A stretch of 64,000 nucleotides of DNA, taken from contig JAVYWL010000001.1 of assembly GCA_038727135.1 (NCBI GenBank), positions 288,001 through 352,000 of the forward strand, given 5' to 3'. Below, one piece after another: positions 5,605-50,018 of the stretch. Position 1 is the first letter of the stretch; each line of letters starts with the position of its first letter. The stretch comes from Candidatus Bathyarchaeia archaeon (GTDB lineage: Archaea > Thermoproteota > Bathyarchaeia > Bathyarchaeales > Bathycorpusculaceae). The position numbers and the translations under genes were made by a program. The notes under the pieces were generated by a model that was not told where the DNA came from, made no database searches, and saw only the letters and a list, made by a program, of their open reading frames with translations.

Positions 5605-6072
5605 GTGAACATGATGGAACATAATGCAAAAGAGAAAACTTACAGCGAATGCTTCGAAGCTATAAAGAAAGGAGTTATGGGAAAATCCTTTGAAGAAAGA
5701 ATGGCACTTGTATGCAGCGTTTTGAAGGAGAAAATCCCATACTATTTTTGGGTTGGATTTTATATTCCCAAGAAGGATTGGTTGGAGCTTGGTTCATCAA
5801 AGGGACCGCCAGCATGCGCCAGAATAGCCTACACTGGTGTTTGCGGGAAATGCGCCAAAAGCGGGAAAACCATTATTGTGCCAAATGTTCACGAGTTTCC
5901 AGGACATATCGCATGTGACCCCCGTTCAAAGTCTGAAATTGCCGTGCCAGTATTCGGCGAGAAGGGTGATGTTGTGGCTGTTCTTGATGTTGACAGCGAG
6001 GAATATGGCAGTTTTGACGAGAAAGATAAGGAGTGGCTTGAGAGGATAGCGAAACTCTTAACTTCAGCCTAG
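5605..6072 (+). CDS. msrC: GAF-domain free methionine-R-sulfoxide reductase
   Basis: WVGFY, PACARI, GVCG, FPGHIACD...SKSEIAVP, VLDVDS. Confidence 0.8.
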   Translation: MNMMEHNAKEKTYSECFEAIKKGVMGKSFEERMALVCSVLKEKIPYYFWVGFYIPKKDWLELGSSKGPPACARIAYTGVCGKCAKSGKTIIVPNVHEFPGHIACDPRSKSEIAVPVFGEKGDVVAVLDVDSEEYGSFDEKDKEWLERIAKLLTSA

Positions 6073-6103
6073 ATTAAAGGGCTACTCTTAGCAGGAAAAC
6101 ATA

Positions 6104-7297
6104 ATGAAAAACGGCTTAGCGAATGCGAAAAAAGCCTACGTGGCTATTCTCCTTCTCGGAATAGTGAGCCTCATGGGAGACGTTGTCTATGAGGGTTCAA
6201 GGGGGATTGTTACACCATACCTAGAATTTCTTGGAGCCTCCGCCTTTGCCATAGCCTTTTTCGGCAGATTTGGGGAGTTTTTGGGATACGCCCTAAGGCT
6301 TGTAAGCGGGAGCCTCGCAGACACCACGAGAGCTTACTGGCTTTTCATATTTTTGGGATACGGGCTTATTGTATCAATACCGCTTTTGGGAGTGACAAGA
6401 ATTTGGGAAATAGCAATAATCTTGGTGCTTCTTGAAAGAATTGGAAAAGCCATTAGGTCGCCGGCGAGAGACGCCGTGCTATCTATTGTAAGCCGAGGGG
6501 TTGGCGCTGGAAAAGCCTTCGGAATCCATGAACTATTAGACCAAATTGGCGCCATTTTAGGTCCCCTCATCGTGGCTGGCTTAATGTTCTACACCAGCAA
6601 CAATTACAATTTAACCTTCAGTCTTCTAGCGTTGCCCTTCATCATGCTTATGGCATTCCTAGCCTACACGTTTAGGAAGGTCGGTTGGAGAAAAACCGCA
6701 GAGCCAGCAGAGGTTAGAATAGAAAAGGGTGAAGAAAAACTTGGAAGAGCTTTTTATGTTTACACTTCGGCTGTTTTGCTGAACACTGTTGGGCTTATAC
6801 CCTTCGAGCTTATACTTCTCAAGGCGACAGAAATTCTAAAGCCGACGAACCAGTTGTGGATTGTCCCCCTAATCTACATGCTGATACAGGGGGTGGACGC
6901 GCCAACAGCACTTTTTGCGGGATTCGCCTACGACAGGTTCAAGATTAGAGTTTTGGCGCTGCCGTTCATTCTGTCGGTTTTTCCAACATTTTTTGCCATG
7001 GCTAATGCAGACTTAACAATGCTTGTTATGGCTGCAGCCTTTTTCGGTCTAGTTTTGGGAATGCAGGAGTCCATTTACCGCGCAGCTGTTTCGGGTTTTG
7101 CCCCAATTTCTTTACGGGGAACAGCCTATGGCATATTTAACACGGCTTATGGTGTTGGCATGTTAACTGGCGGGGCAGTATATGGCTTGATGGCAGAATT
7201 GAAAATTCCATACTTAGCCGTGATAATATATGTTCTTTTGACACAAGCCGCCGCGGTGGTTCTACTCATTAACGCCTACTCAAAAACCAAAACGTGA
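6104..7297 (+). CDS. MFS transporter
   Basis: About 12 hydrophobic segments; ERIGKAIRSPARD and GKAFGIHELLDQIGA motifs. Confidence 0.9.
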   Translation: MKNGLANAKKAYVAILLLGIVSLMGDVVYEGSRGIVTPYLEFLGASAFAIAFFGRFGEFLGYALRLVSGSLADTTRAYWLFIFLGYGLIVSIPLLGVTRIWEIAIILVLLERIGKAIRSPARDAVLSIVSRGVGAGKAFGIHELLDQIGAILGPLIVAGLMFYTSNNYNLTFSLLALPFIMLMAFLAYTFRKVGWRKTAEPAEVRIEKGEEKLGRAFYVYTSAVLLNTVGLIPFELILLKATEILKPTNQLWIVPLIYMLIQGVDAPTALFAGFAYDRFKIRVLALPFILSVFPTFFAMANADLTMLVMAAAFFGLVLGMQESIYRAAVSGFAPISLRGTAYGIFNTAYGVGMLTGGAVYGLMAELKIPYLAVIIYVLLTQAAAVVLLINAYSKTKT

Positions 7298-19786: not shown

Positions 19787-20428
19787 TGTCAATATTATTA
19801 TATATTGATTATTGTTTGTGTTTACATAGCCCATTTTCCTTTACCTTCTACAAATTGTATTGATATGTTTAGCCTTATAAAGACCCCCTCAAAATTTGTT
19901 TTTAACAAATGTTTACCTTAAAAGACTATGACTAATTAAAAAGAATAAGTTCCATCTTCGAAATCACAAATATTCTAAGGACCTTATAGAAGGGAACATT
20001 CACAAGCCATACAGTTAAAGAAGCATTGATATTAATAGTTCTACCTTACAAGGTTGGTCTATGCCCCATACCTAGCACACTTCCTCTAAGTAAAGGTTCA
20101 TATTTTTAGATAAATACCCTTCCAGACCTTGGTTGCCCCATAGGACTATAAAATACACATTCACACACATCCACACTCAATCATACACCAACATAAAATA
20201 AAAAAAGAACAAAACAAAACCTTAAATCAATAGCTTAAACTGAACAATCTTAAGAAAATCTACTTAGAACCTTTAAAACCTAACAATGTTACCCTCAAAC
20301 CTAAGGTTGAAGACCATAAACCAAAAAATACACACCCGCACATATTAACATTCAATCTTTACTCAACATAGAGAAATTTCATAAAAAATAAATCTTGAAA
20401 CTATCAATTATATTTGAGGGAGAAGAGG

Positions 20429-21397
20429 ATGAAGAAGATAGTTTATGGGGTATTTACGTTAATGCTATTAAGCATATTCATTTCAAATATTCAACTTGTC
20501 AAATCTGAAACCATAGAATTGGCTTACGACGACGGAGAGGCTGACCAAGGAGATGCCATGGTTGCAAATAGAACCATCGGGTGGGGAGTAGTGTTCAATC
20601 ACCCTGAAGTGGGTTCTTCATATGTCCTCCAGGGTGTTTCATTTTATATTTTCACTTTCATGGATAATTCGGCTCCTATTAGACTTTTCATTTACTTACA
20701 AAGCGAAGTTCCTTATTATTATAAAAAAGTTCTTGAACTTATAGTTGATGATTTAAAAATTGGATGGAATTACGTAAGTTTAATACAATATAGCATAGTT
20801 GTCTCTAAAAACTTCTTCATCGGTTTCAATTGGGTGCATGATAACAATCCTTACTTGGGAGTTGATGTAGATACACTATCCCATTCTGGAAGTTTCAAAA
20901 CAAGTGATGTTACGTCTTTCCAACTATATAGTGGCTTCTTCAATTATATGATCAGGGCATTCTTATCTAAAACTGGAATTTTAATTTCAACAATAAACAT
21001 TTACCCACAAAGTCTAAATCTTAGGAGTAAGGGTAAATGGATTACAGCCTACATTGAGCTTCCTGAAGGCTACAATGTGACTGACATTAATGTTACTTCT
21101 ATAATGCTCAATAACACTATTCCAGCTAAACCTAAACCTAAGGCTGTTGGAGATTATGACAATGACAGCATTCCAGACTTGATGGTTAAATTTGATAGGG
21201 CTGAAGTCATATCATATATCCTTACCAATGTTAACATTGAAGAGCTAATTGAAGAAAGATTCATGACCATAACACTGACAATAACTGGCTATTTAAATGA
21301 TGGAACACCATTCCAAGGAAGCACAAAAATAAAAATAATAATGCCAATGCCAAGATGCTGGAAGTTCATTAAAACACTGGAAATATACCCAATATAA
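20429..21397 (+). CDS. exported cell-surface protein (element cargo)
   Basis: Signal peptide MKKIVYGVFTLMLL...; ELAYDDGEAD beta-rich domain; C-terminal IYPQSLNLRSKGKWITAYIELP...GDYDNDSIPDLMVKFDR module; several N-x-S/T sequons. Confidence 0.8.
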   Translation: MKKIVYGVFTLMLLSIFISNIQLVKSETIELAYDDGEADQGDAMVANRTIGWGVVFNHPEVGSSYVLQGVSFYIFTFMDNSAPIRLFIYLQSEVPYYYKKVLELIVDDLKIGWNYVSLIQYSIVVSKNFFIGFNWVHDNNPYLGVDVDTLSHSGSFKTSDVTSFQLYSGFFNYMIRAFLSKTGILISTINIYPQSLNLRSKGKWITAYIELPEGYNVTDINVTSIMLNNTIPAKPKPKAVGDYDNDSIPDLMVKFDRAEVISYILTNVNIEELIEERFMTITLTITGYLNDGTPFQGSTKIKIIMPMPRCWKFIKTLEIYPI

Positions 21398-21497
21398 GTA
21401 TCCATTTTTTAACATCTAAATTTTAAATGTACTTCTGTTACTATAACCTTTCAGTAAACATCGCCTGTTTTAGGATTTGGGATTTGTGTCTAACTTG

Positions 21498-21710
21498 TTA
21501 ACGGCTTAGCTGTACAGTTATATAAATTGTAAGTAATTTCTCTATTTCTATGATTTCACTTGTTAAATTGTAGATTGCTTCAGCAGTGTAGTCCTTAACT
21601 TTTACAGCATAGCTGGCTAAGTCTTTAAGCTGCCTCTCCCTCTCACTTATATGCCTTCTAATCTCCTCTAAATTCCTTAAGAACTACTCCCTTTCAACTC
21701 TAAAACTCAT
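21498..21710 (-). pseudogene. 70-codon helical ORF interrupted by in-frame TAG at codon 9
   Basis: GGGTGA RBS then MSFRVERE*FLRNLEEIRRHISERERQLKDLASYAVKVKDYTAEAIYNLTSEIIEIEKLLTIYITVQLSR; TAG at 21684-21686. Confidence 0.55.
21504..21517. repeat. left arm of 14-bp inverted repeat inside the element
   Basis: GCTTAGCTGTACAG is the reverse complement of 23642-23655. Confidence 0.7.
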
Positions 21711-22204
21711 AATATCACCCTTACTCTTGTAGATGACTAGACATATAAGAAATTTAAAATGAACAATCTCAATGCTTCATGTGAAACAATTTGCAATATG
21801 ATTCCATAGGCTTTCAGTTAAACACTCCCAGCTAGGTTCTTAATTTTCAATGATAGCTTTTGAGGGTTGAAAATTGTTTACTGAAAATAACTCCAATAAC
21901 CATGCAGAACAATTCCATTATTCCAGATCTCCAATTTTCCAGCCCTAAATTACTAAATCTAAAATTATATAGCCTGTTTAATATACTTATATGCAAAATC
22001 TTCTTAGAAAGAAGTTCTATTTATTGGAAACTTGCCATAAGAAGTTTGATACCAGACATTACCCATATTAATTGCAAGCAAAAATTAAACATACTCACAT
22101 GTACATTAACATTCATTCAATTATATACTCCAACATTATAAAGTAAGTTTCCATAAAAATAAAAATTATATCTTAAACCATGGAGTAAACTATGGGGAAT
22201 TTAA

Positions 22205-22741
22205 ATGGAGAAAAAGTTGATCTTGGCACTCATCATTATGTTATTAGGATTGGTAGGAGGCTACGGATTAAACCATATAATTTACCAATCACAAATGCAA
22301 CACCTTCAAAAACAGATTCAGAGTCTACAAGAGCAATTAAATGATTTAACCAGTAAGGTGAATTCAATGGTTCCAGATTTTTTGGCAGGAAATGCAACAT
22401 TTCATGAAGTTACACATGTAATTTGGAATAAGGACGAGAATGCTACAAGTGGCAATTATGTAACCGATACATTCTTGCTAACAGGAAAGCTTTGTAGAAT
22501 AAGATGGTGGATGACAGGTGCAACTTTTGATTCCACTGTTATATTCTGGCTTTACTTTGAAAACGGCAAGAAATTCACTCACAGATGTTCTTCAGGTTTC
22601 GCTGGTTCATTTGATTCATTAATAGACCTCACCCTCACCGGATTAAAAGAACTAAATCCTACATCAAGGTATTATTTGAATATAACCATTGAATATGGTA
22701 TTGTGGTTGCATACGAAGTGTGGATTTATGACTATTACTAG
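22205..22741 (+). CDS. membrane-anchored protein with coiled coil and beta-sandwich-like domain (element cargo)
   Basis: N-terminal TM, QHLQKQIQSLQEQLNDL heptads, beta-rich aromatic C-terminus. Confidence 0.75.
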   Translation: MEKKLILALIIMLLGLVGGYGLNHIIYQSQMQHLQKQIQSLQEQLNDLTSKVNSMVPDFLAGNATFHEVTHVIWNKDENATSGNYVTDTFLLTGKLCRIRWWMTGATFDSTVIFWLYFENGKKFTHRCSSGFAGSFDSLIDLTLTGLKELNPTSRYYLNITIEYGIVVAYEVWIYDYY

Positions 22742-22881
22742 GATACGAAAGTCTCCGCTACTCTAAAAGGACAGAGAATGGGATGTGTAGGATACTGGTA
22801 TTATGCATAGTACAAAGAATTACAATAAAGCATGCTTCAATAAAATTTATATTTTAAAACCATGTATTAATTATTGAGATA

Positions 22882-23184
22882 ATGTTTGAAGAATATATGA
22901 TTCTAATGTTCATTGCAACTTTACTTATAGGTTTAGGAATGTGTTTGCTTATTTGGGTTTTTGTTAGAGCTCCTGCAATATCATTGCAATCCAAATTTAA
23001 GAAGTTGGGTGTTGTTAAGGGAAAAAGAAAAGAGGAAATAATTGCAGTTGTTGGGCCGCCAAACTCAATAAGCATGACTCCTAATGGAGAACTATTACAG
23101 TGGATTTCACCTGGTTACCATATTGCACTATTATTTGATTCAAATGGTGTTTGCCTAGGCATAACACATGAAACTGCTGTGTGA
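22882..23184 (+). CDS. small membrane-anchored protein with BamE/SmpA-like motif (element cargo)
   Basis: N-terminal TM, then GKRKEEIIAVVGPP...LLQW...LLFDSNGV. Confidence 0.65.
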   Translation: MFEEYMILMFIATLLIGLGMCLLIWVFVRAPAISLQSKFKKLGVVKGKRKEEIIAVVGPPNSISMTPNGELLQWISPGYHIALLFDSNGVCLGITHETAV

Positions 23185-23216
23185 ATTCAAAAAATACTAA
23201 CCAGATACATGATTTT

Positions 23217-23546
23217 TTATTCTTCCTTTTTCTTTTGAAGGCTGATTCCCTGTTTTTGTAGCCACTCCACAACACTATCCTTATCTTTAACTAGCAAAAT
23301 TTCATCTCCAAGAAAATTGATCCATCCTGCAGATTTTAATTCTTCAAAGTACTCATCTTGAGTTTTCCCTCTAATTCCATAATTAACAGATATTGAACCT
23401 CTAAATTCATCAAGTTTAGCTTTGCCCCCTCTTTCGTATAACTCATTGATTATGTATGCCATTCTTTGTCTTTTCTTTTTTTGGAAAGGGTCAAGTGCAC
23501 CTTCAAACCACAATAGCCCTACCCCCTTCAAATTAATACCTAACAC
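23217..23546 (-). CDS. winged-helix DNA-binding protein (element-encoded)
   Basis: IINELYERGG...YGIRGKTQDEYFEELKSAGWI-wing pattern; real start may be the TTG about 33 nt downstream of 23546. Confidence 0.6.
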   Translation of the reverse strand: MLGINLKGVGLLWFEGALDPFQKKKRQRMAYIINELYERGGKAKLDEFRGSISVNYGIRGKTQDEYFEELKSAGWINFLGDEILLVKDKDSVVEWLQKQGISLQKKKEE

Positions 23547-23641
23547 CAGTTAATATTTAAAACCTGCTGGTATTGGTGTGTAATTGCATATGTAAGGATG
23601 TGGGTGTGTTTTTCTATGTTATATAGCATTTTGTAATATGG

Positions 23642-23655
23642 CTGTACAGCTAAGC
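23642..23655. repeat. right arm of 14-bp inverted repeat inside the element
   Basis: CTGTACAGCTAAGC. Confidence 0.7.
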
Positions 23656-23991
23656 TTTAACTTTAGGTTGGACAAGAACCTTTCCTATATTCCAAATATA
23701 TCATACAAGAATAAAAGTAATTACACATGGTAAAAGACAGTTTGACCCTCCTTACTTTATTTCTTTCATTTTTGGTTTTATTCGTTTTCGGATTCAAAAC
23801 AAATATGTCAATTGGGATGATTTAGACTCCATAAGATATGAAATTAGTGCATAATGCGAGGGCTAAACTCTAATATCTGAACCATTTTAAGGCTTTATAG
23901 TGCACATGGGAATGGTCTCCAATGTGTTTTTTGCAACTTTAGTGAACTTTTCAAACAAAGAGGTTAAATCAGAAAAAGGATGGAGATTGGG

Positions 23992-24948
23992 TTACGTTAT
24001 GATTTTAGGCTTCCTAAGACAATATCCCCACTCGGTCTTAGTAACCAGTTCATAGCCTTCCATGAGATATTTTGTGAGCTCTTCTTTATCATTGGCATAT
24101 ACAACATTATATTCATTCTCTCTGATCCATTGTTTTACAATGTGCACATATTTTAATGTGTTCTGAATGTTGCAGTGTCTTGCAAATCTCTGAGTTTCCA
24201 CAATGTCTTTTGTTTTAAAATATTTCCATGATATAGCAAAATGTCTTAATGTATGGAAATGAATCTTAAGGAAGTCATTGTTACCAGTTTCTTTAGCTAA
24301 TTTCTTAACATAGTTCTTTAACCAGTCATTAATTGTTCGAGGATTCTTTAATGGGAAAACTCTATCAGACTCTTTGGGTAACTGCATTAGAAGAGTGAGT
24401 AGCTCTTCAGACATTGGATAAGTGTTGGTTCTATGCCCTTTAACTCCAGTTATTGTTAGGGTTTTATTCTGTAGGTTGACATCTTTCCATCTAAGGTTCC
24501 ACACTTCAGACTCGGTGGCTCCAGTTTCAACAGCTATCAGAACCATAGCCCTAAGCTTAATGCTCTGTATTCTATAGACCAGTTGTTTAATCATTGATGG
24601 ATTGGGAACATAAAGCTCAGAATTTTTGTAGGCTTTGAAACTGGGTTTTAGAACTTTTAGACCTTTAAACTCTGCAAATTGTTGTACTGTTATCAAGGCA
24701 TACTCCTTAGTCCCATCAGACCATTTAGAAGCTAATATTTGATGGTACATATCCTCAATAGAACCCTTTAAAGCCTTAAGTATCTTCAACTTTCTATGTA
24801 TTGTTGATTCTCTGTTACCTTTCTTGAAAAGCCACAATGCAAAGTTCAAAAGTTCACTGTTATATGTAGGTAGGACTGTAGAGCCGGGGGTGGGAGTTGA
24901 ACCCACATATAGCTGCTCTGCAGGCAGCCGCCTGAACCGTTCGGCCAC
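23992..24948 (-). CDS. int: tyrosine recombinase/integrase, frame open through the att core and tRNA-Cys
   Basis: ETGATESEVWNLRWKDV, VKGH, HTLRH, ARH...TLKY; real start uncertain (GTG in att core or a downstream TTG). Confidence 0.9.
   Translation of the reverse strand: MAERFRRLPAEQLYVGSTPTPGSTVLPTYNSELLNFALWLFKKGNRESTIHRKLKILKALKGSIEDMYHQILASKWSDGTKEYALITVQQFAEFKGLKVLKPSFKAYKNSELYVPNPSMIKQLVYRIQSIKLRAMVLIAVETGATESEVWNLRWKDVNLQNKTLTITGVKGHRTNTYPMSEELLTLLMQLPKESDRVFPLKNPRTINDWLKNYVKKLAKETGNNDFLKIHFHTLRHFAISWKYFKTKDIVETQRFARHCNIQNTLKYVHIVKQWIRENEYNVVYANDKEELTKYLMEGYELVTKTEWGYCLRKPKIIT
24879..24908 (-). repeat. att site, tRNA-proximal copy
   Basis: Identical to 19757-19786; covers T arm, 3' acceptor strand and 3 nt beyond. 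Confidence 0.95.
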
Positions 24949-29271: not shown

Positions 29272-30318
29272 ATGGTGCACTCAATGTCTATAAGGAAGGC
29301 TTTAAGTATTGTTTCCCGGGTCTTGGCTCCGAATAAGCCTTATCATGTTCAATGGATGGTTACAAGAAGGTGCAATTATCGTTGTAGAGGATGCAATGTT
29401 TGGCGAGAGCAGGACAAGGAGGAGTTGTCAACTGAAGAGGTAAAACGTGGGCTGGATGTCCTTCGAAAACTTGGCGTTGTGGAGGTTTTGATATCTGGCG
29501 GTAACCCGCTTTTGAGGGAGGATATTGACGAGATAATCGAGTATGCATCACGTTACTTCTTTCTAACGGTCTATGATAATGGGAGCTTGGCAGCTGAAAA
29601 AATTGACGCTTTACGTCACGCGAATTTTGTTGCAATTTCAATAGATAGCCTAAACCCAGATAAAAACGACAGAATAAGGGGCGTTAAGGGGGCATGGAAA
29701 AGAGCCGTGGAGGCTGTAGAAAGACTTCATATGGAAGGAATTAACGTGAGCGTGACACCAACGATTTCGCAAGCCAACCTTTACGAGATTGTCGATTTCA
29801 CTAAATATTTCTTGGACAGAGGGATACCGGTCTGGTACTCCTTATACTCCTATGACTCGCCAGAAAATTTAAACTCTCTTTTCAAGATAGGCAAGGAGGA
29901 GGATGCCCTTCTAATAAGGGATAAGGAAGCCATGGTAAAAGTTTGCGATGCGCTTCTCGAAATGAAACGGAAAAACGACAATGTTTTGATTACGACAAAG
30001 GTTTTGGAAGCCGTTAAGCACCTTTATCTAGACAACAAGAGAATCTGGAAGTGCCGTGCCCTGCAGAATTTCTTTGTGGTAAATCATCGAGGCGAAGTTT
30101 CCGGCTGCCACCTTAACGAGCCGGTCGCCTCAATTTTTGAGCTGCCAGACCTTTGGGAAAGTGAAAAATTTGAAGCTCTTAGGAAAAAGTACAATGAATG
30201 CGAGAGATGCGCGTATCTTTGTTACATTTTCTATTCGGTTCACGGGAGTATTGCTGGCAACATTGAAATAGTTAGAGACAAGTGGCGCAGCGTAAGATTC
30301 TTCTTAAAAAGACGTTAA
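29272..30318 (+). CDS. radical SAM protein with C-terminal SPASM/Twitch-like cysteines
   Basis: CNYRCRGC, SGGNPLLR, WKCRA...GEVSGC...CERCAYLC. Confidence 0.88.
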   Translation: MVHSMSIRKALSIVSRVLAPNKPYHVQWMVTRRCNYRCRGCNVWREQDKEELSTEEVKRGLDVLRKLGVVEVLISGGNPLLREDIDEIIEYASRYFFLTVYDNGSLAAEKIDALRHANFVAISIDSLNPDKNDRIRGVKGAWKRAVEAVERLHMEGINVSVTPTISQANLYEIVDFTKYFLDRGIPVWYSLYSYDSPENLNSLFKIGKEEDALLIRDKEAMVKVCDALLEMKRKNDNVLITTKVLEAVKHLYLDNKRIWKCRALQNFFVVNHRGEVSGCHLNEPVASIFELPDLWESEKFEALRKKYNECERCAYLCYIFYSVHGSIAGNIEIVRDKWRSVRFFLKRR

Positions 30319-31295
30319 TACGCGGCATGTAATATTTCTAAAACAGCTCTTTCAACTGCTTGACGACTATTTAGTTTTGGCCTCCACCCAAGACTTTTGA
30401 GTCTTTTAATGTTTAAAAGCATGACTTTTACGTCGCCTTTCCAACCTCTCCCTCCATCAACGCCGCCGGTGAAAACATATTGCACATTTTTTAGTCCCAT
30501 TTTCGCGCAAACAATGTCTGCAATTTCTCTTACAACTATTTGGTCTTCAGAGCCTACATTGAATATGCTTACCCTTTCATTACTTGCTTCCAAACCTATT
30601 AAAATGGCATCTACACAATCCTCAACGTGTAGGTAAGATTTCATTTGAGTGCCATCACCGAGTATCTCCAGTCTTTCTGGGTTTTCTCTAAGCTTTTTTA
30701 TGAAATCATAAATGACCCCGTGCTGCGACCTTAAGCCTACAATGTTTGCCAGCCTGTAGATTATTGCTTTAAAGCCATACGTGTTAGCATAGGCCGATAT
30801 GAGGGCTTCAGCCGCAAGTTTAGAAGCACCGTAAGTTGAAAGGGGTTTTAGTGGTGCATAATCCTCCGGGGTTGGTATTGTTTCTGCATCTCCATAAACT
30901 GTTGAGGAAGAAGTGAAAACCAAGGTTTTGACAACCCCAACTTTGCGAATTGCTTCAAGGAGGTTAAATGTTGTAAGCACGTTTTGCTCGTAATGAATTT
31001 GGGGGTTTTCAGAACCAACACGAACTTCTGGGTTGGCGGCTAAATGGAAAACAGTATCACACCCGTTTATGGATTTAACAACCTCTTCGAGAGACAGCAA
31101 GTCACCACGTATGAATCTAAAGCCGGGCGTGCCCAACCACTTCCTTACATTTTCAATGGTACCCGAGCTTAAGTTGTCAAACACAATAACATCTTTGCCC
31201 ATTTTGCATAATCTATCGACTAGGTGGCTTCCTATGAAACCCGCGCCACCGGTTACCAAAATTTTTCCCAAATCTTGGCTTTGAAACATCTTCAT
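30315..31295 (-). CDS. NAD-dependent nucleotide-sugar epimerase/dehydratase (GalE-like)
   Basis: VTGGAGFIGSHL, SSSTVYG, YGASK, GWKGDV. Confidence 0.92.
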   Translation of the reverse strand: MKMFQSQDLGKILVTGGAGFIGSHLVDRLCKMGKDVIVFDNLSSGTIENVRKWLGTPGFRFIRGDLLSLEEVVKSINGCDTVFHLAANPEVRVGSENPQIHYEQNVLTTFNLLEAIRKVGVVKTLVFTSSSTVYGDAETIPTPEDYAPLKPLSTYGASKLAAEALISAYANTYGFKAIIYRLANIVGLRSQHGVIYDFIKKLRENPERLEILGDGTQMKSYLHVEDCVDAILIGLEASNERVSIFNVGSEDQIVVREIADIVCAKMGLKNVQYVFTGGVDGGRGWKGDVKVMLLNIKRLKSLGWRPKLNSRQAVERAVLEILHAAY

Positions 31296-31345
31296 CCTTC
31301 AAAGGATTTCATATTTCAAGAGGACTATAGGCATATTTATTTTTG

Positions 31346-32383
31346 TTATTGTTTTTGCCTTGTTAGCGCTAACCACAAGTGGTCGCATTTTGGACGCGGA
31401 AGGCTTGTTTCACGTTTATCTTTGTGAACCATTACACGCCTACTCGGGTCTTTTAAAAACTCGCCAACTACGGACGCCTCAATTTTCTCTTCCTTCAATT
31501 TCTCAATGATGTGTTCTGCGTATTCTGGTTTTGCCGCAATGAGCATAGCTCCGGAACTTATCAGTTGCAGCGGGTCTATCTCCAAATGTCTGCAAATCTC
31601 CAATGTTTCCTTTGCCACTGGAATTTTTTCTTCAAAAACTTTAACGCCCAAGTTTGAAGCATCCGCCATCTCGTGAATGCCGCCTAGAACACCGCCTTCT
31701 GTTGGATCATGCATTGCATCTACTCCTCCAGTTTTAAAGGCTGTTATGCCATCTTTAACAACACTTATTTTCTCAAAAAACTTCCGTGCAGACTTTAAAA
31801 GCCGGTCGTTGGCGCCCATGTTTAAAAGAAGTTCGTAGCGTTCAGTTGCGAGTATGGCCGTCCCTTCTATGCCAGCGCTTTTCGTCAATATTAATTTGTC
31901 CCCGGGTTTGGCTCCACCAGCAGTGACATAACATCCTTTGTCCGTTATTCCCAAAGCGCACCCTATAACAATCGGATTGATAAGTTCTGGTGTTACTTCA
32001 CAGTGTCCCCCAATAATCGCCATTTTTAAATCTCTTGCAGCCGCATCCATTTGAGAACATATAACCTCAATGGTTTTCCGGTCAGCCTCTTCTGGAAGTA
32101 ATATACATGAAAGGAAGAAGGCTGGTTCCACACCGAAAGTGGCGACATCATTTGCATTAATGTTCACGGCAAGCCAACCAATACGCTCAACAGCACCAGT
32201 AATGGGGTCCATTGAAGCCACCAGAGATTTCTCGCCTAAATCTATGACTGCACCATCATAGCCGGCTGAAGGCCCAATAATAACTTCATTACGTTTGTAA
32301 CCTAAATTCTTGAAGACAACTTCTTCTAATATTTCTATGGGAACTTTTCCAAATGGCAGTTCCAACTTTGATTCCTCAAGCAA
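31346..32383 (-). CDS. AIR synthase-related protein (PurM/ThiL/SelD/HypE fold), function unknown
   Basis: DPITGA, NANDVA, IIGGHCEV, KPGDKLIL, MHDPTEGG; lacks the C-terminal PRIC of HypE. Confidence 0.85.
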   Translation of the reverse strand: MLEESKLELPFGKVPIEILEEVVFKNLGYKRNEVIIGPSAGYDGAVIDLGEKSLVASMDPITGAVERIGWLAVNINANDVATFGVEPAFFLSCILLPEEADRKTIEVICSQMDAAARDLKMAIIGGHCEVTPELINPIVIGCALGITDKGCYVTAGGAKPGDKLILTKSAGIEGTAILATERYELLLNMGANDRLLKSARKFFEKISVVKDGITAFKTGGVDAMHDPTEGGVLGGIHEMADASNLGVKVFEEKIPVAKETLEICRHLEIDPLQLISSGAMLIAAKPEYAEHIIEKLKEEKIEASVVGEFLKDPSRRVMVHKDKRETSLPRPKCDHLWLALTRQKQ

Positions 32384-32396
32384 GTATTTTCTGCTT

Positions 32397-33149
32397 TTAG
32401 CTTTTAAGTTGTGGTAGAGCTTGCCTTACAATCCGAACAATAGGTGTAGCAACAATCACGCCTATAGTCATTTGCCCAATGTTTACAGGAACTTCTGCGA
32501 AGGCGAAGACTCCGAGGAAAAATTGCTCGTAAAGGAAGTAGCCAAAAACCATCAAAAACCCTCCAAAGATGCACGCTATTATCGTTAAACTGAATTCAGG
32601 TTCAGATATTAAGGCTAAGACCGTGATAATAATGAATGAGAGAACCCCTACCCCTAACCAAAACTCGACTGGGATAAAAAAGGTTGATGCGGGATTTTCT
32701 ATGGAAACCATACCTGAATAAAGTTCGACAAAACCACTGTAATAGAGAAAGCCAATGAGGCTAATTAGCATTCCTATAAGTATGCCTATCTCAGTTGTGA
32801 AAATCCTCCACTCCCTTTTGGTATGGGACTTGACGAAAACCTGCGCCTTTCGACTAAGAAAACCAGCTAGAAAACCCTCCAAAGCTTTAATTACCAAAGT
32901 TGCTGGGGCATAATAGTAATAGCCGAGGAAAACGTCTGCGAGCATAGAGCCAACGCCACCAGCAAAGGCTCCTACAAAGGGTCCGAAAAGTAAGGCTGCT
33001 GTATAAACCATCGTCTCTCCGATGTTAAAGTAGCCTTTAGTGCTGGGTACATAAATTGTAAAGCTTATCGTTGCTATGCAAACAAGGGCTGTAAAAACAC
33101 CCGTAATACTTAATCGCCTTGCCAATTCTGCAGAAGATTTTGATAGCAT
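32397..33149 (-). CDS. ECF transporter S component (HmpT/PdxU2-like)
   Basis: GYFNIGETMVYTAALLFGP, GGVGSMLAD, YAPATLVIKALEG, EVPVNIGQ; extra internal TM segments. Confidence 0.85.
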   Translation of the reverse strand: MLSKSSAELARRLSITGVFTALVCIATISFTIYVPSTKGYFNIGETMVYTAALLFGPFVGAFAGGVGSMLADVFLGYYYYAPATLVIKALEGFLAGFLSRKAQVFVKSHTKREWRIFTTEIGILIGMLISLIGFLYYSGFVELYSGMVSIENPASTFFIPVEFWLGVGVLSFIIITVLALISEPEFSLTIIACIFGGFLMVFGYFLYEQFFLGVFAFAEVPVNIGQMTIGVIVATPIVRIVRQALPQLKS

Positions 33150-33167
33150 AACGCGAACCTCTTTTTG

Positions 33168-33191
33168 ATAGTATAGCTACAACTATACTAT
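33168..33191. promoter_or_regulatory. perfect 9-6-9 palindrome (candidate operator) abutting the TATA box of the ECF-S gene
   Basis: ATAGTATAG-ctacaa-CTATACTAT, immediately downstream on the minus strand of TTTAAA (33192-33197) and 18 nt before the ATG at 33149. Confidence 0.7.
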
Positions 33192-33222
33192 TTTAAATTT
33201 ATGTTCCCGACTGCGTGGAAAA

Positions 33223-34626
33223 CTATAGGAGAAGTTTTAAGTTGTCGAACGCATGGAGGGCTTTCATTCCACGTTTTGTTATTTTAAAATACTTTCGCCC
33301 ATCTTTTTCATAACTTGAAATCAGCCCATTCTTTGAAAGTTCGGTTAAATGTTGGTAGATTGCCGCTCTTGTCATCATTTTTCCGAGTTTTTTCCATAAT
33401 TCATATCCGTAGGCATCCCCTTCACATAAAATTCTCAGTATTTTCTCTTTTGTGCTAAGCTCTAACCCAACCACAGCCGTTTTCCTTCTTTTGGTTAAGG
33501 CTTGGAGAATGTCTGTCGCCTTTAGCCCACTTCCAGTTATTAAGCATACAACTTTGTCCTTTTTGTCAATCACCCGTTCGTTCACAAGCTTTTTGAGCGC
33601 TGCGTAGGTTGCTGCGCTTGCTGGCTCGGCGAAGACTCCTTCATGCTTTGCAATTTCTTGTTCTGCTAAAAAAATTTCCTCGTCTGAAACTGATGTGGCG
33701 GTTCCTTTGGATTCTTTGATGGCTTTAAGGGCTAGTTTGCCATACCAAGGGTTTTTAACGAGGATAGCAAGCGCGCGGGTTGAAGGTTTTGTTTTGAGGG
33801 CTGGCTCCTCAAGGTTTTGCGTATACGCCCTAACTATTGGCGAGCATCCTTCGGCTTGAACGCCGACCATCTTTGGGAGAGAGTGTACTTCGCCTTTTAT
33901 TCCAAGCTCTTTGAAGCCTTTCCAAATGGCATATAGTGCTCCACCGCTTCCCATGGAGGCTATAAACCAGTCTGGAACACCCATCTGCTCGTAAACTTCG
34001 TAGGCTATGGTTTTTAGGGCTTCTATGGATAAGGGATTAAATTCGGCGGATCCTTGATACCAGTCCATTTCTTTGGCTAGCTCATCTGCTCTTTTCAGCG
34101 AATCGTCCACTATTTCCCCATACTCTTCGATCACGGCATCGTAGATGAGCATTTGGGCAAGTTTTCCCATATCCACATTTTTCGGCACTATAACATGACA
34201 TGTTAATCCAGACTTGGCGCAGTATGCGGCTAAAGAAGCCCCAAGGTTCCCATTTGTAGCGCACACAACCGACTTATACTCCAAATCTATGGCGTTAGAA
34301 ACAATTAGGGCGGCACATCTATCTCTAAAAGAGTTCGTTGGATTTCGCGTTTCATCCTTAAAGTATAAATTGTTTAGCCCAGCGTTTTTAGCAAGCCTTC
34401 TCGCCCTAATGAGAGGGGTACCCCCTTCCCCCATGGAGACAACATTTCTAACTTTTGGCAAGAATCTCTTGTAACGCCAAAAAATGAAGGGCCCAACGAA
34501 TTTCGCTTTTTTAAGGGTTTCATCATCGCATTTATACTCTAGGGGACTGTCACATTCCTCGCAACTATATTGCGGCGGGTAAGCTTCAAACCTTGTGCCG
34601 CATGCTGTGCATTCCAGATAGAACAT
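33223..34626 (-). CDS. threonine-synthase-like (PLP fold II) domain fused to C-terminal PadR-type winged helix
   Basis: CTACG...CEECD Zn ribbon, SMGEGGTPL, NPTNSFRDR, EPASAA, ITGSGLK; then ILRILCEGDAYGYELWK...AIYQHLTELSKNGLI...RKYFKITKRG. Confidence 0.85.
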   Translation of the reverse strand: MFYLECTACGTRFEAYPPQYSCEECDSPLEYKCDDETLKKAKFVGPFIFWRYKRFLPKVRNVVSMGEGGTPLIRARRLAKNAGLNNLYFKDETRNPTNSFRDRCAALIVSNAIDLEYKSVVCATNGNLGASLAAYCAKSGLTCHVIVPKNVDMGKLAQMLIYDAVIEEYGEIVDDSLKRADELAKEMDWYQGSAEFNPLSIEALKTIAYEVYEQMGVPDWFIASMGSGGALYAIWKGFKELGIKGEVHSLPKMVGVQAEGCSPIVRAYTQNLEEPALKTKPSTRALAILVKNPWYGKLALKAIKESKGTATSVSDEEIFLAEQEIAKHEGVFAEPASAATYAALKKLVNERVIDKKDKVVCLITGSGLKATDILQALTKRRKTAVVGLELSTKEKILRILCEGDAYGYELWKKLGKMMTRAAIYQHLTELSKNGLISSYEKDGRKYFKITKRGMKALHAFDNLKLLL

Positions 34627-34697
34627 TATTTTGCCTCGTCTCTCTTTCTAACCATCATATTTAACAGTCCCGTCTATGAGGCTTTCTAAATTTTGGT

Positions 34698-34949
34698 TTA
34701 AGATTCCAAACTTGGAAGGATTGCAATTATTTCTGCAACCCGCCTTATGGTTGCCCAGTCAAATTTGGCGTCGCTCTCCATATTAACTAAAAGATTAATC
34801 CCGTTCTGCCCGTCTCTTTCCAGTGTTTTTGGGCCTGCATCCTTTGGCTTTTTAAGCTCCATAATTGCTGGCAGAAGCATAATTATGATGAAGGTTATAA
34901 CTCCAAAAAACAACATTACAGCCGACGTTAAAGCCGAAGCCGGAACCAT
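34698..34949 (-). CDS. small single-TM hypothetical protein
   Basis: One TM followed by PAIMELKKPKDAGP; starts 3 nt after the GT2 stop. Confidence 0.65.
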   Translation of the reverse strand: MVPASALTSAVMLFFGVITFIIIMLLPAIMELKKPKDAGPKTLERDGQNGINLLVNMESDAKFDWATIRRVAEIIAILPSLES

Positions 34950-34952
34950 TCT

Positions 34953-36275
34953 CTACCTTTCTAAATGTTTGATGCAGTTCATAATATAACAGTTTCCATT
35001 GCCTGAATGCTCAGTCTTCGCCCAATGGTTGTTGTTTTTCTTTGTAATTTTTGAGAACAGAAGGTCGATGAGGGCTTTTGTACATATGGGAATGTTATAT
35101 AAAAGTGTGAAGAGAAGTAGGGGGATAAGCCACTGCGCCCTCTTTCTGCCGTCAAGATAAGCCCCAACACCAATCTCATAAAATGGGGCAAAGTTCCCAA
35201 TAGAACTGTAGAGGGCGATGGAGGATGCCGCCCAAAATGAGGTGGACCATTGTGAAAATTTCAGAAAGGTTAGCGCCGCCCCAATTATCCATGAAAGAAG
35301 GACGACAACGGGGAGAAAATAGACGCCGAGCAGAAGTAGGCCGTCAATTTTCTCTTTAAATCCGAGCTCTCTGCTTTTTAGAACTTTAAGCCAATGTTTA
35401 AAGGCGCATTGCATATGCCCTTTTGCCCACCTGTATCGTTGTCTCCAGTAGGCTCGCCAGTTTTCAACAGCCTCTTCGTAGCATTCCGCATCGCCAACAT
35501 ACTTAACCTTGTAACCAGCGAGGTAAACACGGAAAGTTAGATCGGTGTCCTCTGCCAAAATATTTTCGTCCCATCCGCCAAGAGATTCCAAAAGAACGCG
35601 CCTAAAACCTCCGACAGTTCCTCCGAATTGAGTTATTAAGCCGAGGGTGTCGCGGGCTTCTTGGTCGACGCGGTATCCGCCTATCCTTTCAAGGGCAACA
35701 AGCCTCGTGACAATGTTCTGCGGCTCGTTGAGCACAACAACCCTGCCTTGAACGGCTCCAACTTTTGGGTCCTTAAACTCTTTCACAAGTTTTTCCACAA
35801 TGTCCCTTTGCGGATAGTAGTCAGCATCAAAACACAATACTATTTCGCCATCAGCCAGCTTCATTCCAGCGTTTAAGGCGGAAGCCTTCCCGCGACCACC
35901 CTCTTCTTTATCTCTTCTCACAACAAGTATGTAAGGATGAATCCTCGAATACTGTTCTGCTATTATTCCAGTTCTATCTGTTGAAGCGTCATCTATCACT
36001 ATTATCTGCAACTTATCCTTAGGATATGTCAGCTCCGTCATTCTTTGGAGAATCCGTCCAATAACACGTTCTTCGTTGCGGGCAGGTATCAAAATTGACA
36101 CTTTTGGTTGATAATATGGGTCCGCAATTTCAGCTGCATTAATGCTTTCTCCATTTCTCTTTGATTTCTTGGCAACTGTAAATGTGAAAATGTAGTGGCG
36201 AACAAGGTATGCCACCATCAAAGCTGTCGACAAAATAAGTAATGCCTCTAAAATTTCTGTTATCAAGTTTTCCAC
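34953..36275 (-). CDS. processive membrane GT2 glycosyltransferase (IcaA/PgaC/cellulose-synthase-like)
   Basis: PARNE, DDASTD, GKASALN, FDAD, AEDTD, RQRYRW (QxxRW), flanking TM helices. Confidence 0.9.
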   Translation of the reverse strand: MENLITEILEALLILSTALMVAYLVRHYIFTFTVAKKSKRNGESINAAEIADPYYQPKVSILIPARNEERVIGRILQRMTELTYPKDKLQIIVIDDASTDRTGIIAEQYSRIHPYILVVRRDKEEGGRGKASALNAGMKLADGEIVLCFDADYYPQRDIVEKLVKEFKDPKVGAVQGRVVVLNEPQNIVTRLVALERIGGYRVDQEARDTLGLITQFGGTVGGFRRVLLESLGGWDENILAEDTDLTFRVYLAGYKVKYVGDAECYEEAVENWRAYWRQRYRWAKGHMQCAFKHWLKVLKSRELGFKEKIDGLLLLGVYFLPVVVLLSWIIGAALTFLKFSQWSTSFWAASSIALYSSIGNFAPFYEIGVGAYLDGRKRAQWLIPLLLFTLLYNIPICTKALIDLLFSKITKKNNNHWAKTEHSGNGNCYIMNCIKHLER

Positions 36276-36658
36276 CGTTTTCTCTCTCTTGTTTCAGTTA
36301 AAAAGGTCAGACTTGTGGACCAAAACGCTACAACCCACAAAACATTCAACATCGGACTTAAAATAATGTACAAAGTGTTAAGCACTACATCCATATGCAC
36401 AATAGCTAAGTGGACGAACGAATAGAAGATGGTGCTCCAAATGAAGCTTAGGATGTTGCCCAACAAAAGTATTGCCGCTTTTCTTTCCAAGGAACTTTTT
36501 AATGGTATAAGAATTAGCAGAAACAGAAAGTTAAATGTAAGCAGTGTTTGAGTTGTCTCCTCAGGTATTGGAAGGAGCCCATAAAGAGTTAGGAGGATAA
36601 AAGCCGCAATAAATGCAGAGCAGAAAATCAGTGTTTTCAAGCTCTCCAATCTCCGCAT
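36263..36658 (-). CDS. four-TM hypothetical membrane protein
   Basis: Four hydrophobic helices; overlaps the GT2 start. Confidence 0.7.
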   Translation of the reverse strand: MRRLESLKTLIFCSAFIAAFILLTLYGLLPIPEETTQTLLTFNFLFLLILIPLKSSLERKAAILLLGNILSFIWSTIFYSFVHLAIVHMDVVLNTLYIILSPMLNVLWVVAFWSTSLTFLTETRERKRWKT

Positions 36659-48947: not shown

Positions 48948-50018
48948 ATGAAAAAGAACGAACATATTACAATGCTGCACGGCGCCGGCGGGACAGTCAT
49001 GCACGACCTCATTAAAAACTACATTTTAAAATACTTTGGCGGCACGGAAAACGCGCGTTTTGAAGTCCCTCTTGAGGCTTTAGATGATGCTGCAGTTGTT
49101 GGCGACATTGTTTTGAAAAGCGACTCCCACGCCGTTAAGCCAATCTTCTTCCCGGGCGGGGACATTGGACGTTTGGCTGTTTCAGGCACTGTTAACGATA
49201 TTGCTGTTTTAGGAGCTGAACCATACGCTTTGGCTTGCGGTTTCATTTTAGAGGAGGGCCTACCCCTAACAGATTTTGAAAAGATTCTTGCCAGCATGCG
49301 GCAAACATGCCGAGAAGCAAATGTAAGCATCGTTACGGGTGACACAAAAGTCATCGAGAAAGGAAGTCTAGGCGGCTGTGTAATTAACGTGTCTGGAATT
49401 GGAAGGAGAACAGAAGCCTTAGAAAAGAATTTGGCTGTTATTAAACGGTTCAGAAACAACTTTAAGGCTCGTTGGATTCTTGATTCAAACCTCAAGCCCG
49501 GAGACAAAATAATATTGTCCGGGACAATAGGCGACCATGGTTTGGCGGTCTTATCAGCTCAAGAGGGCTTTAGCTTTAGAAGTGGCATAAAATCTGATGT
49601 TAAGCCCCTAAACCGCCTCATTCAGCGTTTGTTAGGCGAGGTTGGCGGCATAGTTGCCATGAAAGACCCAACACGAGGCGGGTTGGCAGACGCCTTAAAC
49701 GAGTTCAGCGAAAAATCAAAAGTGGGCATACTAATCCACGAAGAAAAAATTCCAATAAAGGACGACGTAAGAGCGGCATGTGAAATGTTGGGCTTAGACC
49801 CGCTCGAAGTCGGCAACGAAGGAAAAATAGTTATAGGCGTGTTGAGGGAGAAAGCTGAAGAAGTTTTACAATTCTTAAAAGCCACAGAAGAGGGCAAGGA
49901 AGCAGAAATCATAGGCGAAGCAACAAGCACCTTCAACGGAGTAGCCATGCAAACAGTGGTCGGCGGAAAAAGGATAATAGCAAGACCGTTAGGCGACCCG
50001 ATTCCAAGAATATGCTAG
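48948..50018 (+). CDS. hypE: hydrogenase maturation protein HypE
   Basis: HGAGG, PIFFPGGDIGRLAVSGTVND, MKDPTRGG, C-terminal PRIC. Confidence 0.96.
   Translation: MKKNEHITMLHGAGGTVMHDLIKNYILKYFGGTENARFEVPLEALDDAAVVGDIVLKSDSHAVKPIFFPGGDIGRLAVSGTVNDIAVLGAEPYALACGFILEEGLPLTDFEKILASMRQTCREANVSIVTGDTKVIEKGSLGGCVINVSGIGRRTEALEKNLAVIKRFRNNFKARWILDSNLKPGDKIILSGTIGDHGLAVLSAQEGFSFRSGIKSDVKPLNRLIQRLLGEVGGIVAMKDPTRGGLADALNEFSEKSKVGILIHEEKIPIKDDVRAACEMLGLDPLEVGNEGKIVIGVLREKAEEVLQFLKATEEGKEAEIIGEATSTFNGVAMQTVVGGKRIIARPLGDPIPRIC

Follow-up and report, generated by a model that had tools for sequence, protein, structure and literature searches.

We analyzed a 64,000-nt stretch of DNA (hereafter, the window) from a Candidatus Bathyarchaeia archaeon (assembly GCA_038727135.1, contig JAVYWL010000001.1, positions 288,001 to 352,000 of the forward strand), in which a minus-strand open reading frame (ORF) at positions 33223-34626 encodes a protein of 467 aa. 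This protein combines a zinc ribbon, a fold-type II pyridoxal 5'-phosphate (PLP) domain of the threonine synthase (ThrC) type and a PadR-type winged helix-turn-helix (wHTH) domain. An earlier note, made from the letters alone, had proposed that it is a ThrC pseudoenzyme turned transcription factor, which would control two genes downstream through an adjacent palindrome. The features of the locus are listed below with the evidence for each of them; coordinates are those of the window.

31346-32383, minus strand: AIR-synthase-family (PurM/ThiL/HypE-like) putative ATP-utilising protein, 345 aa, hereafter AIRS-like (Pfam AIRS and AIRS_C)
32397-33149, minus strand: S component of an energy-coupling factor transporter (ECF-S), PF07155, 250 aa, candidate importer of B6 vitamers (Pfam; similarity to 4HZU_S)
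33169-33190, minus strand: candidate operator, 22-bp palindrome TAGTATAGTTGTAGCTATACTA with 10-bp arms, a 2-bp spacer and one mismatch to the consensus (footprinting)
33191-33203, minus strand: TATA-like A/T-rich box CATAAATTTAAAA, directly upstream of the candidate operator (sequence; consensus in aligned loci)
33223-34626, minus strand: putative regulator gene, 467 aa, with a zinc ribbon, a ThrC-like PLP domain without the Schiff-base Lys and a PadR wHTH (ORF, Pfam, NF004170, AlphaFold2, Foldseek)
33253-33441, minus strand: PadR-type wHTH, residues 396-458, with a C-terminal helix behind it that reaches residue 466 (Pfam PF03551 and AlphaFold2 model)
33460-33501, minus strand: flexible linker, residues 376-389 (the only segment of the AlphaFold2 model with pLDDT below 50)
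33532-34440, minus strand: ThrC-like PLP-fold-II domain, proposed as the sensor, residues 63-365 (PALP, identity to 2zsj, PLP-site residues)
34324-34326, minus strand: codon AGA, Arg101, at the position of the Schiff-base Lys (codon reading, alignment to ThrC structures, homologue counts)
34531-34626, minus strand: N-terminal CxxC...CxxC zinc ribbon, residues 1-32, with C6, C9, C22 and C25 (conservation in the alignment)

Read along the minus strand, the stop codon of the putative regulator is followed by CATAAATTTAAAA, by TAGTATAGTTGTAGCTATACTA (33190-33169) and, 19 nt further, by the ATG of the ECF-S gene. The ORF, its domains, Arg101, the unique palindrome and the downstream genes are far beyond what would be expected by chance.

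The domain composition described in the earlier note was confirmed by Pfam. The PALP domain is complete at residues 63-365 (E 4.8e-77), and the PadR domain (PF03551) was found in frame at residues 396-458 with E 1.5e-13 and 51 bits against a gathering score of 27. The protein presented no GntR match, and its wHTH is therefore PadR-type and C-terminal. The structure prediction that the note had called for yielded a confident AlphaFold2 model, built from a 99-sequence alignment of the fused family, with a mean predicted local distance difference test (pLDDT) of 91.9 and a predicted template modelling score of 0.79. In this model, the linker at residues 376-389 separates the enzyme-like body from a wHTH whose pLDDT lies at about 85-95. 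The wHTH consists of three helices (392-402, 407-413 and 420-432), a two-strand wing (436-441 and 444-449) and a C-terminal helix (451-466). The top Foldseek matches were all structures of threonine synthases, with TM scores of 0.83-0.86 on the target and 35-40% identity (40% for 2zsj). In the 99-sequence alignment, the four cysteines of the zinc ribbon and the recognition-helix motif of the wHTH (Y424, H426, L427) were each conserved in at least 90% of the sequences; the zinc ribbon is also present in an unfused ThrC paralogue on contig 2.

A homodimer was predicted to form through the ThrC-like domain, with an ipSAE score of 0.83 against 0.00 for the best of three controls. Of solved homodimers, 20 of 30 attained this value, as did 1 of 23 single chains; the calibration is approximate here, as the run included PLP and a custom alignment, and solved ThrC dimers may be remembered by the predictor. 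At least 52% of the contacts were common to the runs, and the pLDDT of the partner was at least 86. The predicted interface excludes the wHTH. Two wHTH domains carried on flexible linkers would fit an operator with two-fold symmetry.

At the catalytic position, the codons of the minus strand from 34344 to 34315 (AAT CCA ACG AAC TCT TTT AGA GAT AGA TGT) encode NPTNSFRDRC, as the earlier note had read them. Arg101 aligns by phmmer with the Lys of GSFKDR in the solved threonine synthases 2zsj, 2d1f and 6cgq. In fold-type II PLP enzymes, this Schiff-base Lys is required for transaldimination and for the acid-base steps. The second ThrC motif, ASxGN, is altered to ATNGN as had been stated (CATNGNLGAS in the 467-aa ORF). 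The note had left open that Arg might be a private mutation, and this was not what we found. The 120 best homologues are 99-67% identical to the protein, and 118 of them are about 467 aa long; their Lys site is occupied by R in 116, S in two and M in one, with one unmatched sequence and no K. We then considered the best 80 loci from different GTDB species, all of them Bathyarchaeia (hereafter, the species loci). Six of these loci lack the N-terminus, and the 74 that are readable at this site present R in 70 cases, S in one, M in one and K in none, with two that have no match to the motif. Two further ThrC-type genes, of 422 and 369 aa, are encoded in the same genome and both present the motif NPTGSFKDR, so that the separate canonical thrC asked about in the note does exist. 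Both of these checks favoured the reading of the note.

The remainder of the active site has been retained. N95, P96, T97, S99, F100, D102, R103, G126 and N127 are near-invariant in both types of fusion (defined below) and in unfused ThrC, and the same is true of E202, K205, T206, G226, G228, Q257, E334, T364, G367 and K369 across fusions and Lys-bearing ThrC. We take these conserved pocket residues to be the PLP contacts. Position 200 behaves differently: it is Arg in 28 of 75 unfused ThrC, S/T/A in Arg-type fusions and F/L in hydrophobic-type fusions, with Ser200 in the protein of the window. The Arg at this position, within the segment NP(Y/F)R(L/I)EGQKT, is presumably the residue of ThrC that binds the phosphate of the substrate. 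Positions 125 and 128 are also changed in the fusions relative to ThrC. This pattern of residues fits selection for cofactor binding without substrate turnover, and on its sequence the 467-aa protein is not expected to make threonine.

We extended the analysis to the entire family with an exhaustive phmmer search of 1.84 billion representative sequences, which returned 1,381 proteins at E <= 1e-30. The family alignment comprised 160 sequences: 145 of the best 150 (five fragments shorter than 340 aa were dropped) and 15 further sequences. The Lys was present in all 75 relatives without wHTH, including six proteins of 610-633 aa that carry a different C-terminal domain. It was absent from 83 of the 85 wHTH fusions, where it is replaced by R (25), L (19), I (17), V (5), T (5), M (4) or F (3) and, in one case each, by S, Y, A, N or H. 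When a tree was inferred with FastTree from the ThrC domain alone and rooted at its midpoint, the wHTH fusions formed a single clade with the exception of one long branch, and this clade splits into an Arg-type (R-type) and a hydrophobic-type sub-clade. By source name, other members of the fusion family come from Thermococcus chitonophagus and Thermoprotei. These comparisons of sequences indicate that the ThrC-wHTH fusion is a large and old family, that loss of the Lys accompanies gain of the wHTH and that relatives of the putative regulator are widespread in Archaea.

The architecture is also represented in databases. The best NCBIfam model, NF004170/PRK05638 ("threonine synthase"), aligns residues 4-460 to positions 2-441 of its 442 positions, wHTH included, with a score of 400.7 bits that is below its curated cut-off of 421. 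The generic thrC equivalog TIGR00260 was passed (216.7 vs. 167.1 bits). The end-to-end match to the former and the pass of the latter explain why source annotations name such proteins "threonine synthase". The ThrC-wHTH fusion is therefore already modelled in a curated library, hence neither rare nor unrecorded, and the naming of these mostly Lys-less proteins as threonine synthases probably represents a systematic, family-wide misannotation. Full-text searching of the literature found no published description of a ThrC-wHTH protein or of a fold-type II PLP regulator, and nothing relevant on the active-site residues of ThrC. The proposed new class of PLP-fold-II regulator thus matched no publication, with the qualifications that NF004170 already covers the architecture and that two fused sub-clades keep the Lys (see below).

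The two downstream genes, described in the earlier note as ECF-S and kinase-like, encode an ECF-S protein and a protein of the AIR-synthase family. The ECF-S protein matches PF07155 at 102.5 bits (gathering score 26.7), and an EcfT gene is encoded elsewhere in the genome. The AIRS-like protein falls below every equivalog cut-off (HypE, 122.7 vs. 251.6; ThiL, 90 vs. 184.15; SelD, 83 vs. 291). We rejected its assignment to HypE or ThiL on these cut-offs and on the presence of a canonical ThiL elsewhere in the genome; the Protein Atlas describes it as "AIR synthase family protein" and nothing further. Across the species loci, an ECF-S gene was found within 1.5 kb downstream of the regulator in 72 of 77 cases (within 300 nt in 67), and the AIRS-like gene follows the ECF-S gene in 61 of 70. 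In a set of 30 loci of relatives, taken with 1.5-kb flanks, 26 contained an ECF-S gene and 23 an AIRS gene. In 13-kb views of the relatives' loci the flanks vary and the triad persists. The NAD-dependent epimerase gene that follows the AIRS-like gene (30315-31295) was rejected as a member of the operon because it is conserved only in close relatives. Finally, in two loci, L047 (7439-8747) and L057, the same palindrome precedes an ECF-S of 167 aa, and the place of the AIRS-like protein behind it is taken by a protein of 240 aa whose C-terminal domain is that of an NAD kinase. It is possible that this protein is a non-orthologous replacement of the operon enzyme, which hints at a phosphorylating step of salvage.

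The palindrome noted earlier between the stop of the regulator and the start of the ECF-S gene is real (33169-33190), and phylogenetic footprinting across the 80 species loci supports the idea that it is an operator. At the ECF-S promoters of the species loci, the 22-bp palindrome reads:

TAGTATAGTTnnAACTATACTA

The consensus, TAGTATAGTT-nn-AACTATACTA, was found within 160 nt after the regulator stop with at most two mismatches in 69 of the 80 loci and with at most four in 76, when random 160-nt windows of the same loci mostly gave 7-11 mismatches. An A/T-rich box precedes the palindrome in all loci that have it, and its consensus in the 76 aligned loci is AAAnTTTAAAA; we infer a promoter function for this TATA-like box. 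At 0-2 mismatches to TAGTATAGN6CTATACTA, the palindrome of the window is the sole copy in the 1.55-Mb genome, and at three mismatches the matches equal those of a reversed-pattern control (5 vs. 5). In the four remaining loci, the ECF-S gene has moved about 650-1260 nt further downstream, and the palindrome recurs upstream of it there with one or two mismatches (34 nt before the start of the ECF-S match in two loci, and about 73 and about 170 nt before it in the others). The palindrome thus tracks the ECF-S promoter when the ECF-S gene is displaced. Per stretch of about 12 kb, exactly one site was found in 71 of the 80 loci, a tandem pair in four and none at three mismatches or fewer in five. 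In the loci with tandem sites (L121, L131, L142 and L144, about positions 6250-6296), two overlapping-phase copies lie 17 bp apart, and this spacing suggests that two dimers may bind cooperatively in some lineages. A site between the TATA box and the transcription start is the classic position of an archaeal repressor, and by analogy the position of the candidate operator would be that of a repressor as well.

What the operon may transport is suggested by the ECF-S protein. Its sole sequence relative in the PDB is 4HZU chain S, HmpT/PdxU2 of Lactobacillus brevis (E 1.2e-9). The preferred substrate of HmpT is given as pyridoxamine in PMC4860826, and the text of PMC9997740 counts PdxU and PdxU2/HmpT, both PF07155 members, among only three characterised prokaryotic B6 transporters. 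The genome of the window, which is 94.7% complete, presented no match to PdxS or PdxJ; PdxS was found in all four archaeal controls. The same genome carries ThiC next to ThiD as well as the canonical ThiL. The lack of detected PdxS and PdxJ, together with the presence of ThiC, ThiD and ThiL, suggests that this archaeon needs external vitamin B6 and does not need external hydroxymethylpyrimidine (HMP).

A more direct link to B6 comes from the hydrophobic-type fusions. We sampled 201 Thermoproteota genomes and found three PdxS-bearing genomes, all of one family, with pdxS beside a fusion gene. Seventeen genomes of that family were then searched: five carry PdxS, and in all five a Leu-type fusion, with the motif EPTGSYLDR at the Lys site, is divergent from pdxS-pdxT. 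The spacer of roughly 60 bp between them contains CCTATATATAGG in all five:

L165 positions 4129-7173, and likewise L166, L167, L175 and L176: Leu-type fusion gene divergent from pdxS-pdxT, with CCTATATATAGG in the spacer (gene context)

In four of five genomes searched (1.2-2.2 Mb), this 12-mer occurs exactly once in each and always at the promoter of the regulator, and the reversed 12-mer, used as a control, gave no match. Sibling genomes without pdxST keep the regulator, with the CCTATATATAGG site kept in one of two searched; the loss of pdxST in a sibling genome includes two further genes (one locus compared). In three other lineages, including a Bathyarchaeial paralogue, CCTATATATAGG lies between hydrophobic-type fusions and divergent PF07155 genes, and one of the ECF-S proteins fronted by it is 45% identical over 230 aa to the ECF-S of the window. 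Of 20 fusion loci from other families, 9 have a PF07155 gene next to the fusion. These gene contexts suggest that a single regulator family, with a single type of site, lies in front of either the PLP synthase genes or PF07155 transporter genes. Two loci from single-contig genomes (L161 in G236 and L162 in G103) present an Arg-type fusion of 435-436 aa and, behind it in this order, an ECF-S gene (253-257 aa), a duplicated ATP-binding cassette ATPase gene (439 aa) and a 248-aa gene, which possibly form a dedicated ECF transporter operon. An Lrp/AsnC gene is located just upstream of the fusion operon in both.

The distribution of PdxS points in the same direction. A hand tabulation of the 201-genome sample gave PdxS in 8 of at least 55 fusion-bearing genomes versus 87 of the other 146, a comparison that is supportive only, kin not being independent. 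In one family of 10 genomes, the sole PdxS-bearing genome is the sole one without a fusion.

Taken together, these results make it very probable that the 467-aa protein senses a ligand and regulates the operon next to it. We propose, with a probability of roughly 60%, that it is a PLP-sensing repressor of a B6 salvage operon and an independently evolved archaeal analogue of PdxR. In this model, the protein would act as a one-component transcription factor and not as a threonine synthase. With the Lys lost and the PLP pocket kept, PLP (or a close B6 phosphate) would be held reversibly and without catalysis. Dimerisation via the ThrC-like domain would present two PadR wHTH domains to the 22-bp palindrome. 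When B6 is plentiful, the liganded dimer would sit on the palindrome and block transcription of the ECF-S/AIRS-like operon. The operon would import an external B6 vitamer and probably process it in an ATP-dependent manner in an archaeon whose genome yielded no PLP synthase. Five elements of this model are inferred from the evidence above: which ligand is sensed, that the protein binds DNA, that its liganded form represses, what the transporter carries and what the AIRS-like protein does. Vitamin B6 as the specific effector and regulon is an addition to the earlier note, which had considered PLP, a PLP-amino-acid adduct or a phosphorylated metabolite.

A bolder extension can also be formulated, which we consider doubtful. 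The Lys-less, wHTH-fused ThrC clade as a whole may serve Archaea as the master sensor of free PLP, its cofactor site having been adapted to reversible ligand binding by loss of the Lys. In that case, the operon would be a complete and so far undescribed B6 salvage route, with the PF07155 protein as the long-sought archaeal B6 importer and the AIRS-like protein as a non-orthologous kinase or activating enzyme of B6 vitamers, replaced by the NAD-kinase-like substitute in some lineages.

Alternatively, it is possible that the protein works as GabR does, with PLP as a permanent cofactor and with an amino or phospho-amino acid (O-phosphohomoserine, threonine, serine or the like) as the signal, bound as an external aldimine; what the operon imports or processes would then be related to that metabolite and not to B6. 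ThrC, from which the domain derives, acts on a phospho-amino acid, and the pocket is conserved beyond PLP as well (E202, K205, T206). Moreover, Lys-less mutants of fold-type II enzymes, such as tryptophan synthase beta K87T and O-acetylserine sulfhydrylase K41A, trap PLP-amino-acid aldimines. However, the fusions present S/T/A or F/L at position 200 and changes at positions 125 and 128, and their targets are a vitamin-type ECF-S gene and, in the sister type, pdxST rather than amino-acid genes. Aldimine exchange without the Lys would also be slow for a sensor. We therefore regard this explanation as unlikely.

A second possibility is that the regulator senses the thiamine pyrimidine. In that case, the pocket would bind HMP phosphate (HMP-P), the ECF-S protein would import HMP and the AIRS-like protein would be a ThiL-type phosphate kinase. 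HMP-P is nearly isosteric with PLP, with an amino group in place of the aldehyde, and is a serious alternative ligand; loss of the Lys would suit a ligand that has no aldehyde. The nearest solved S component was first called HmpT and predicted to be an HMP transporter (PMC4860826), ThiL is the second-best family of the AIRS-like protein (90 bits) and ThiC was not found in 39 of 61 relatives. Against this, the genome of the window combines ThiC next to ThiD and a canonical ThiL with no PLP synthase found, so that HMP salvage would not be needed there. The sister regulators flank pdxS-pdxT and not thi genes, and HmpT itself binds pyridoxamine according to PMC4860826. We consider HMP-P sensing quite improbable.

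It is very unlikely that the protein is still an enzyme, that is, a bifunctional enzyme-regulator comparable to BirA or to the archaeal RbkR in which Arg or another residue has taken over the role of the Lys. The pocket is strongly conserved, the TIGR00260 cut-off for thrC is passed (216.7 vs. 167.1 bits) and the two fused sub-clades that keep the Lys could be bifunctional. Nevertheless, the Schiff-base Lys is needed in fold-type II enzymes, no single chemistry explains a spread of R, I, L, M, V, T, F and others across 83 of 85 fusions, and two Lys-bearing ThrC paralogues are present in the genome. Equally remote is the idea that the wHTH is a dimerisation or protein-contact module without DNA binding and that the palindrome is an unrelated promoter element or the terminator of the regulator: the palindrome does lie just 3' of the regulator stop, where a hairpin could terminate, and the predicted dimer interface leaves out the wHTH, but the palindrome follows the ECF-S gene when this is displaced by 650-1260 nt, always comes directly after a TATA-like box and is A/T-rich, which makes a poor hairpin terminator (none was called in 31200-34800 by a bacterial-type scan), and the recognition-helix motif Y424, H426 and L427 is at least 90% conserved. 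That scan, which covered terminators and sigma-70 promoters, returned scores at the level of shuffled sequences and is not relevant to an archaeon.

Several observations weigh against the proposal of a PLP-sensing B6 repressor. First, two clusters of fused proteins keep the Lys and are nested within the R-type: the Lys is retained in 15 of 15 listed members of the 62-member cluster P0121 (source names Bathyarchaeota) and in four of four full-length members of cluster P0126 (named Lokiarchaeota by the source), with the motifs NPTSSFKDR and NPTNSFKDR. These sub-clades are either reversions or bifunctional enzyme-regulators. Second, the AIRS-like gene is more widespread than the regulator: of 61 relatives, 53 carry the former and 38 the latter, and 38 of the 39 high-quality genomes have the AIRS-like gene. 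This gene is paired with an ECF-S gene, without the palindrome, in 10 of 12 loci of genomes that lack an R-type regulator. The persistence of this pairing without the regulator indicates that the AIRS-like protein is the core partner of the transporter and the regulator an add-on. To our knowledge, no B6 chemistry has been described for the AIRS-like protein. Third, the correlation between the regulator and the loss of PdxS is uninformative within the order because PdxS is missing nearly order-wide regardless of the regulator (it exceeds the family cut-off in 3 of 61 genomes). The adjacency to pdxST involves the Leu (hydrophobic) type in one genus and not the Arg type of the window, and the ligand would have to be transferred by inference between sub-clades that are about 40% identical in sequence. 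The R-type of the window is tied to B6 only by the pocket and the transporter subfamily that it has in common with the sister type and by the lack of detected PdxS and PdxJ.

The transporter and the sites call for similar caution. PF07155 is polyspecific, with RibU for riboflavin and further S components among its members. The similarity to HmpT is modest and mainly confined to residues 14-101, with Glu41 as the only one of the named substrate residues that is matched. The 12-mer CCTATATATAGG contains a TATA sequence and could partly be a promoter element. Among the 20 non-Bathyarchaeial fusion loci, 11 have no adjacent ECF-S gene; two of these present a divergent AIRS-like gene, and no adjacent B6 gene was found in any of the 11. 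The R-type palindrome was not found at promoters in five genomes of other families, where three matches with three mismatches were all intragenic and were taken as chance. The RNA data are likewise thin: two of three raw RNA runs gave no reads, and the third gave nine on the regulator gene, at 34036-34605, and none on the ECF-S or AIRS-like genes. The first mates of the nine reads lie on the plus strand, the orientation that sense reads would have in a stranded library of the usual design, and nine reads are too few to establish an expression level or a transcription start. The contigs labelled X1 seem to be DNA of a roughly 96%-identical strain. In sum, the B6 model rests entirely on comparative genomics and models.

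A radical-SAM/SPASM gene (29272-30318) is convergent to the cluster, is conserved within the genus only and is probably unrelated. Upstream of the regulator, the region 34953-36658 contains a family-2 glycosyltransferase gene and two small membrane-protein ORFs without a Pfam match; it is also conserved at the level of the genus only and is probably unrelated. The window contains a second AIR-synthase-family gene at 49056-49931 (AIRS and AIRS_C, 70 bits to the ThiL model). Finally, positions 20000-24948 form an island of low GC content (0.33 vs. about 0.45 elsewhere) that ends at a tyrosine integrase gene (23992-24948; Phage_integrase, E 1.5e-20) and includes two ORFs without a Pfam match (20414-21397 and 22205-22741). 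This island is probably an integrated mobile element.

The closest functional parallel to the proposed regulator is found in the bacterial PdxR/MocR family (which includes GabR and TauR), where a transcription factor likewise carries a sensor domain derived from a PLP enzyme. In MocR proteins, the sensor is a fold-type I aminotransferase domain and the wHTH is of the GntR type and N-terminal, unlike the fold-type II domain and C-terminal PadR wHTH described here, and they generally keep the PLP lysine that is gone from the protein of the window. The gene for PdxR is typically divergent from pdxST. The archaeal fusion family presents this layout and putative targets of this kind as well (divergent pdxST; adjacent PF07155 genes), with regulation read from gene context. 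PdxR regulons are reported in PMC5320631 to hold pdxST, pdxK and the PF07155 transporter gene pdxU, and the same text gives MocR regulators as "not present in Archaea". The archaeal fusion is an independent invention and not a member of the MocR family.

The 467-aa protein shares with ThrC (TIGR00260; 2zsj, 6cgq, 2d1f, 1uim) its fold, 35-40% identity over about 340 residues, the motifs of the PLP site, the zinc ribbon seen in the archaeal paralogue and a predicted dimer via the same domain. It differs by the Arg that replaces the Schiff-base Lys, by the change at position 200 and by the added wHTH. The winged helix resembles that of PadR regulators (PF03551) in having a C-terminal helix behind it. 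Such regulators bind palindromic operators as dimers, and in the present case a dimer is predicted and a conserved palindrome is present. Classical PadR proteins are small (about 110-180 aa), carry an N-terminal wHTH and sense phenolics or drugs directly, whereas here the wHTH is attached to a putative sensor of 380 aa, derived from an enzyme, that carries the predicted dimer interface. Archaea possess other vitamin regulators derived from enzymes, namely ThiR with its ThiN domain and RbkR with its riboflavin kinase domain. These follow the same design logic, the fold of a vitamin-pathway enzyme serving as sensor, and differ in their folds, vitamins and DNA-binding domains. A sensor of PLP or of another vitamin that derives from an enzyme and is fused to a wHTH is therefore a known principle, of which a fold-type II archaeal pseudoenzyme with its own candidate operators is a new realisation.

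With respect to the transporter, HmpT (4HZU chain S) and the ECF-S protein of the window both belong to PF07155, and Glu41 of HmpT aligns with Glu45. Unlike HmpT, which has 166 aa, the ECF-S of the window has 250 aa, and His84 of HmpT aligns with Lys88. The two match in residues 14-101 and 191-245 of the longer protein, with about 90 extra residues between these segments that perhaps represent two added membrane helices. Versions of the ECF-S of 167-179 aa also occur in relatives.

We found no description of archaeal vitamin B6 control in the literature, with the supplements of PMC9997740 and PMC5320631, which may list archaeal B6 genes, lying outside the search. The transporters of B6 are described in PMC9997740 as an unsolved puzzle in most prokaryotes, and "an unknown kinase" is invoked there for some organisms that salvage the vitamin. 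The family characterized here, which has members in the cultured Thermococcus chitonophagus and in single-contig genomes, provides a probable regulator for Archaea and two putative operator motifs, together with candidates for the transporter and the salvage enzyme. It would also constitute a natural case of a pseudoenzyme becoming a sensor, in which one catalytic residue was removed while the cofactor pocket remained under selection, and which would converge on PdxR from another fold. Finally, many archaeal proteins annotated as "threonine synthase" are probably not enzymes, which would distort both reconstructions of threonine biosynthesis and counts of transcription factors in Archaea.

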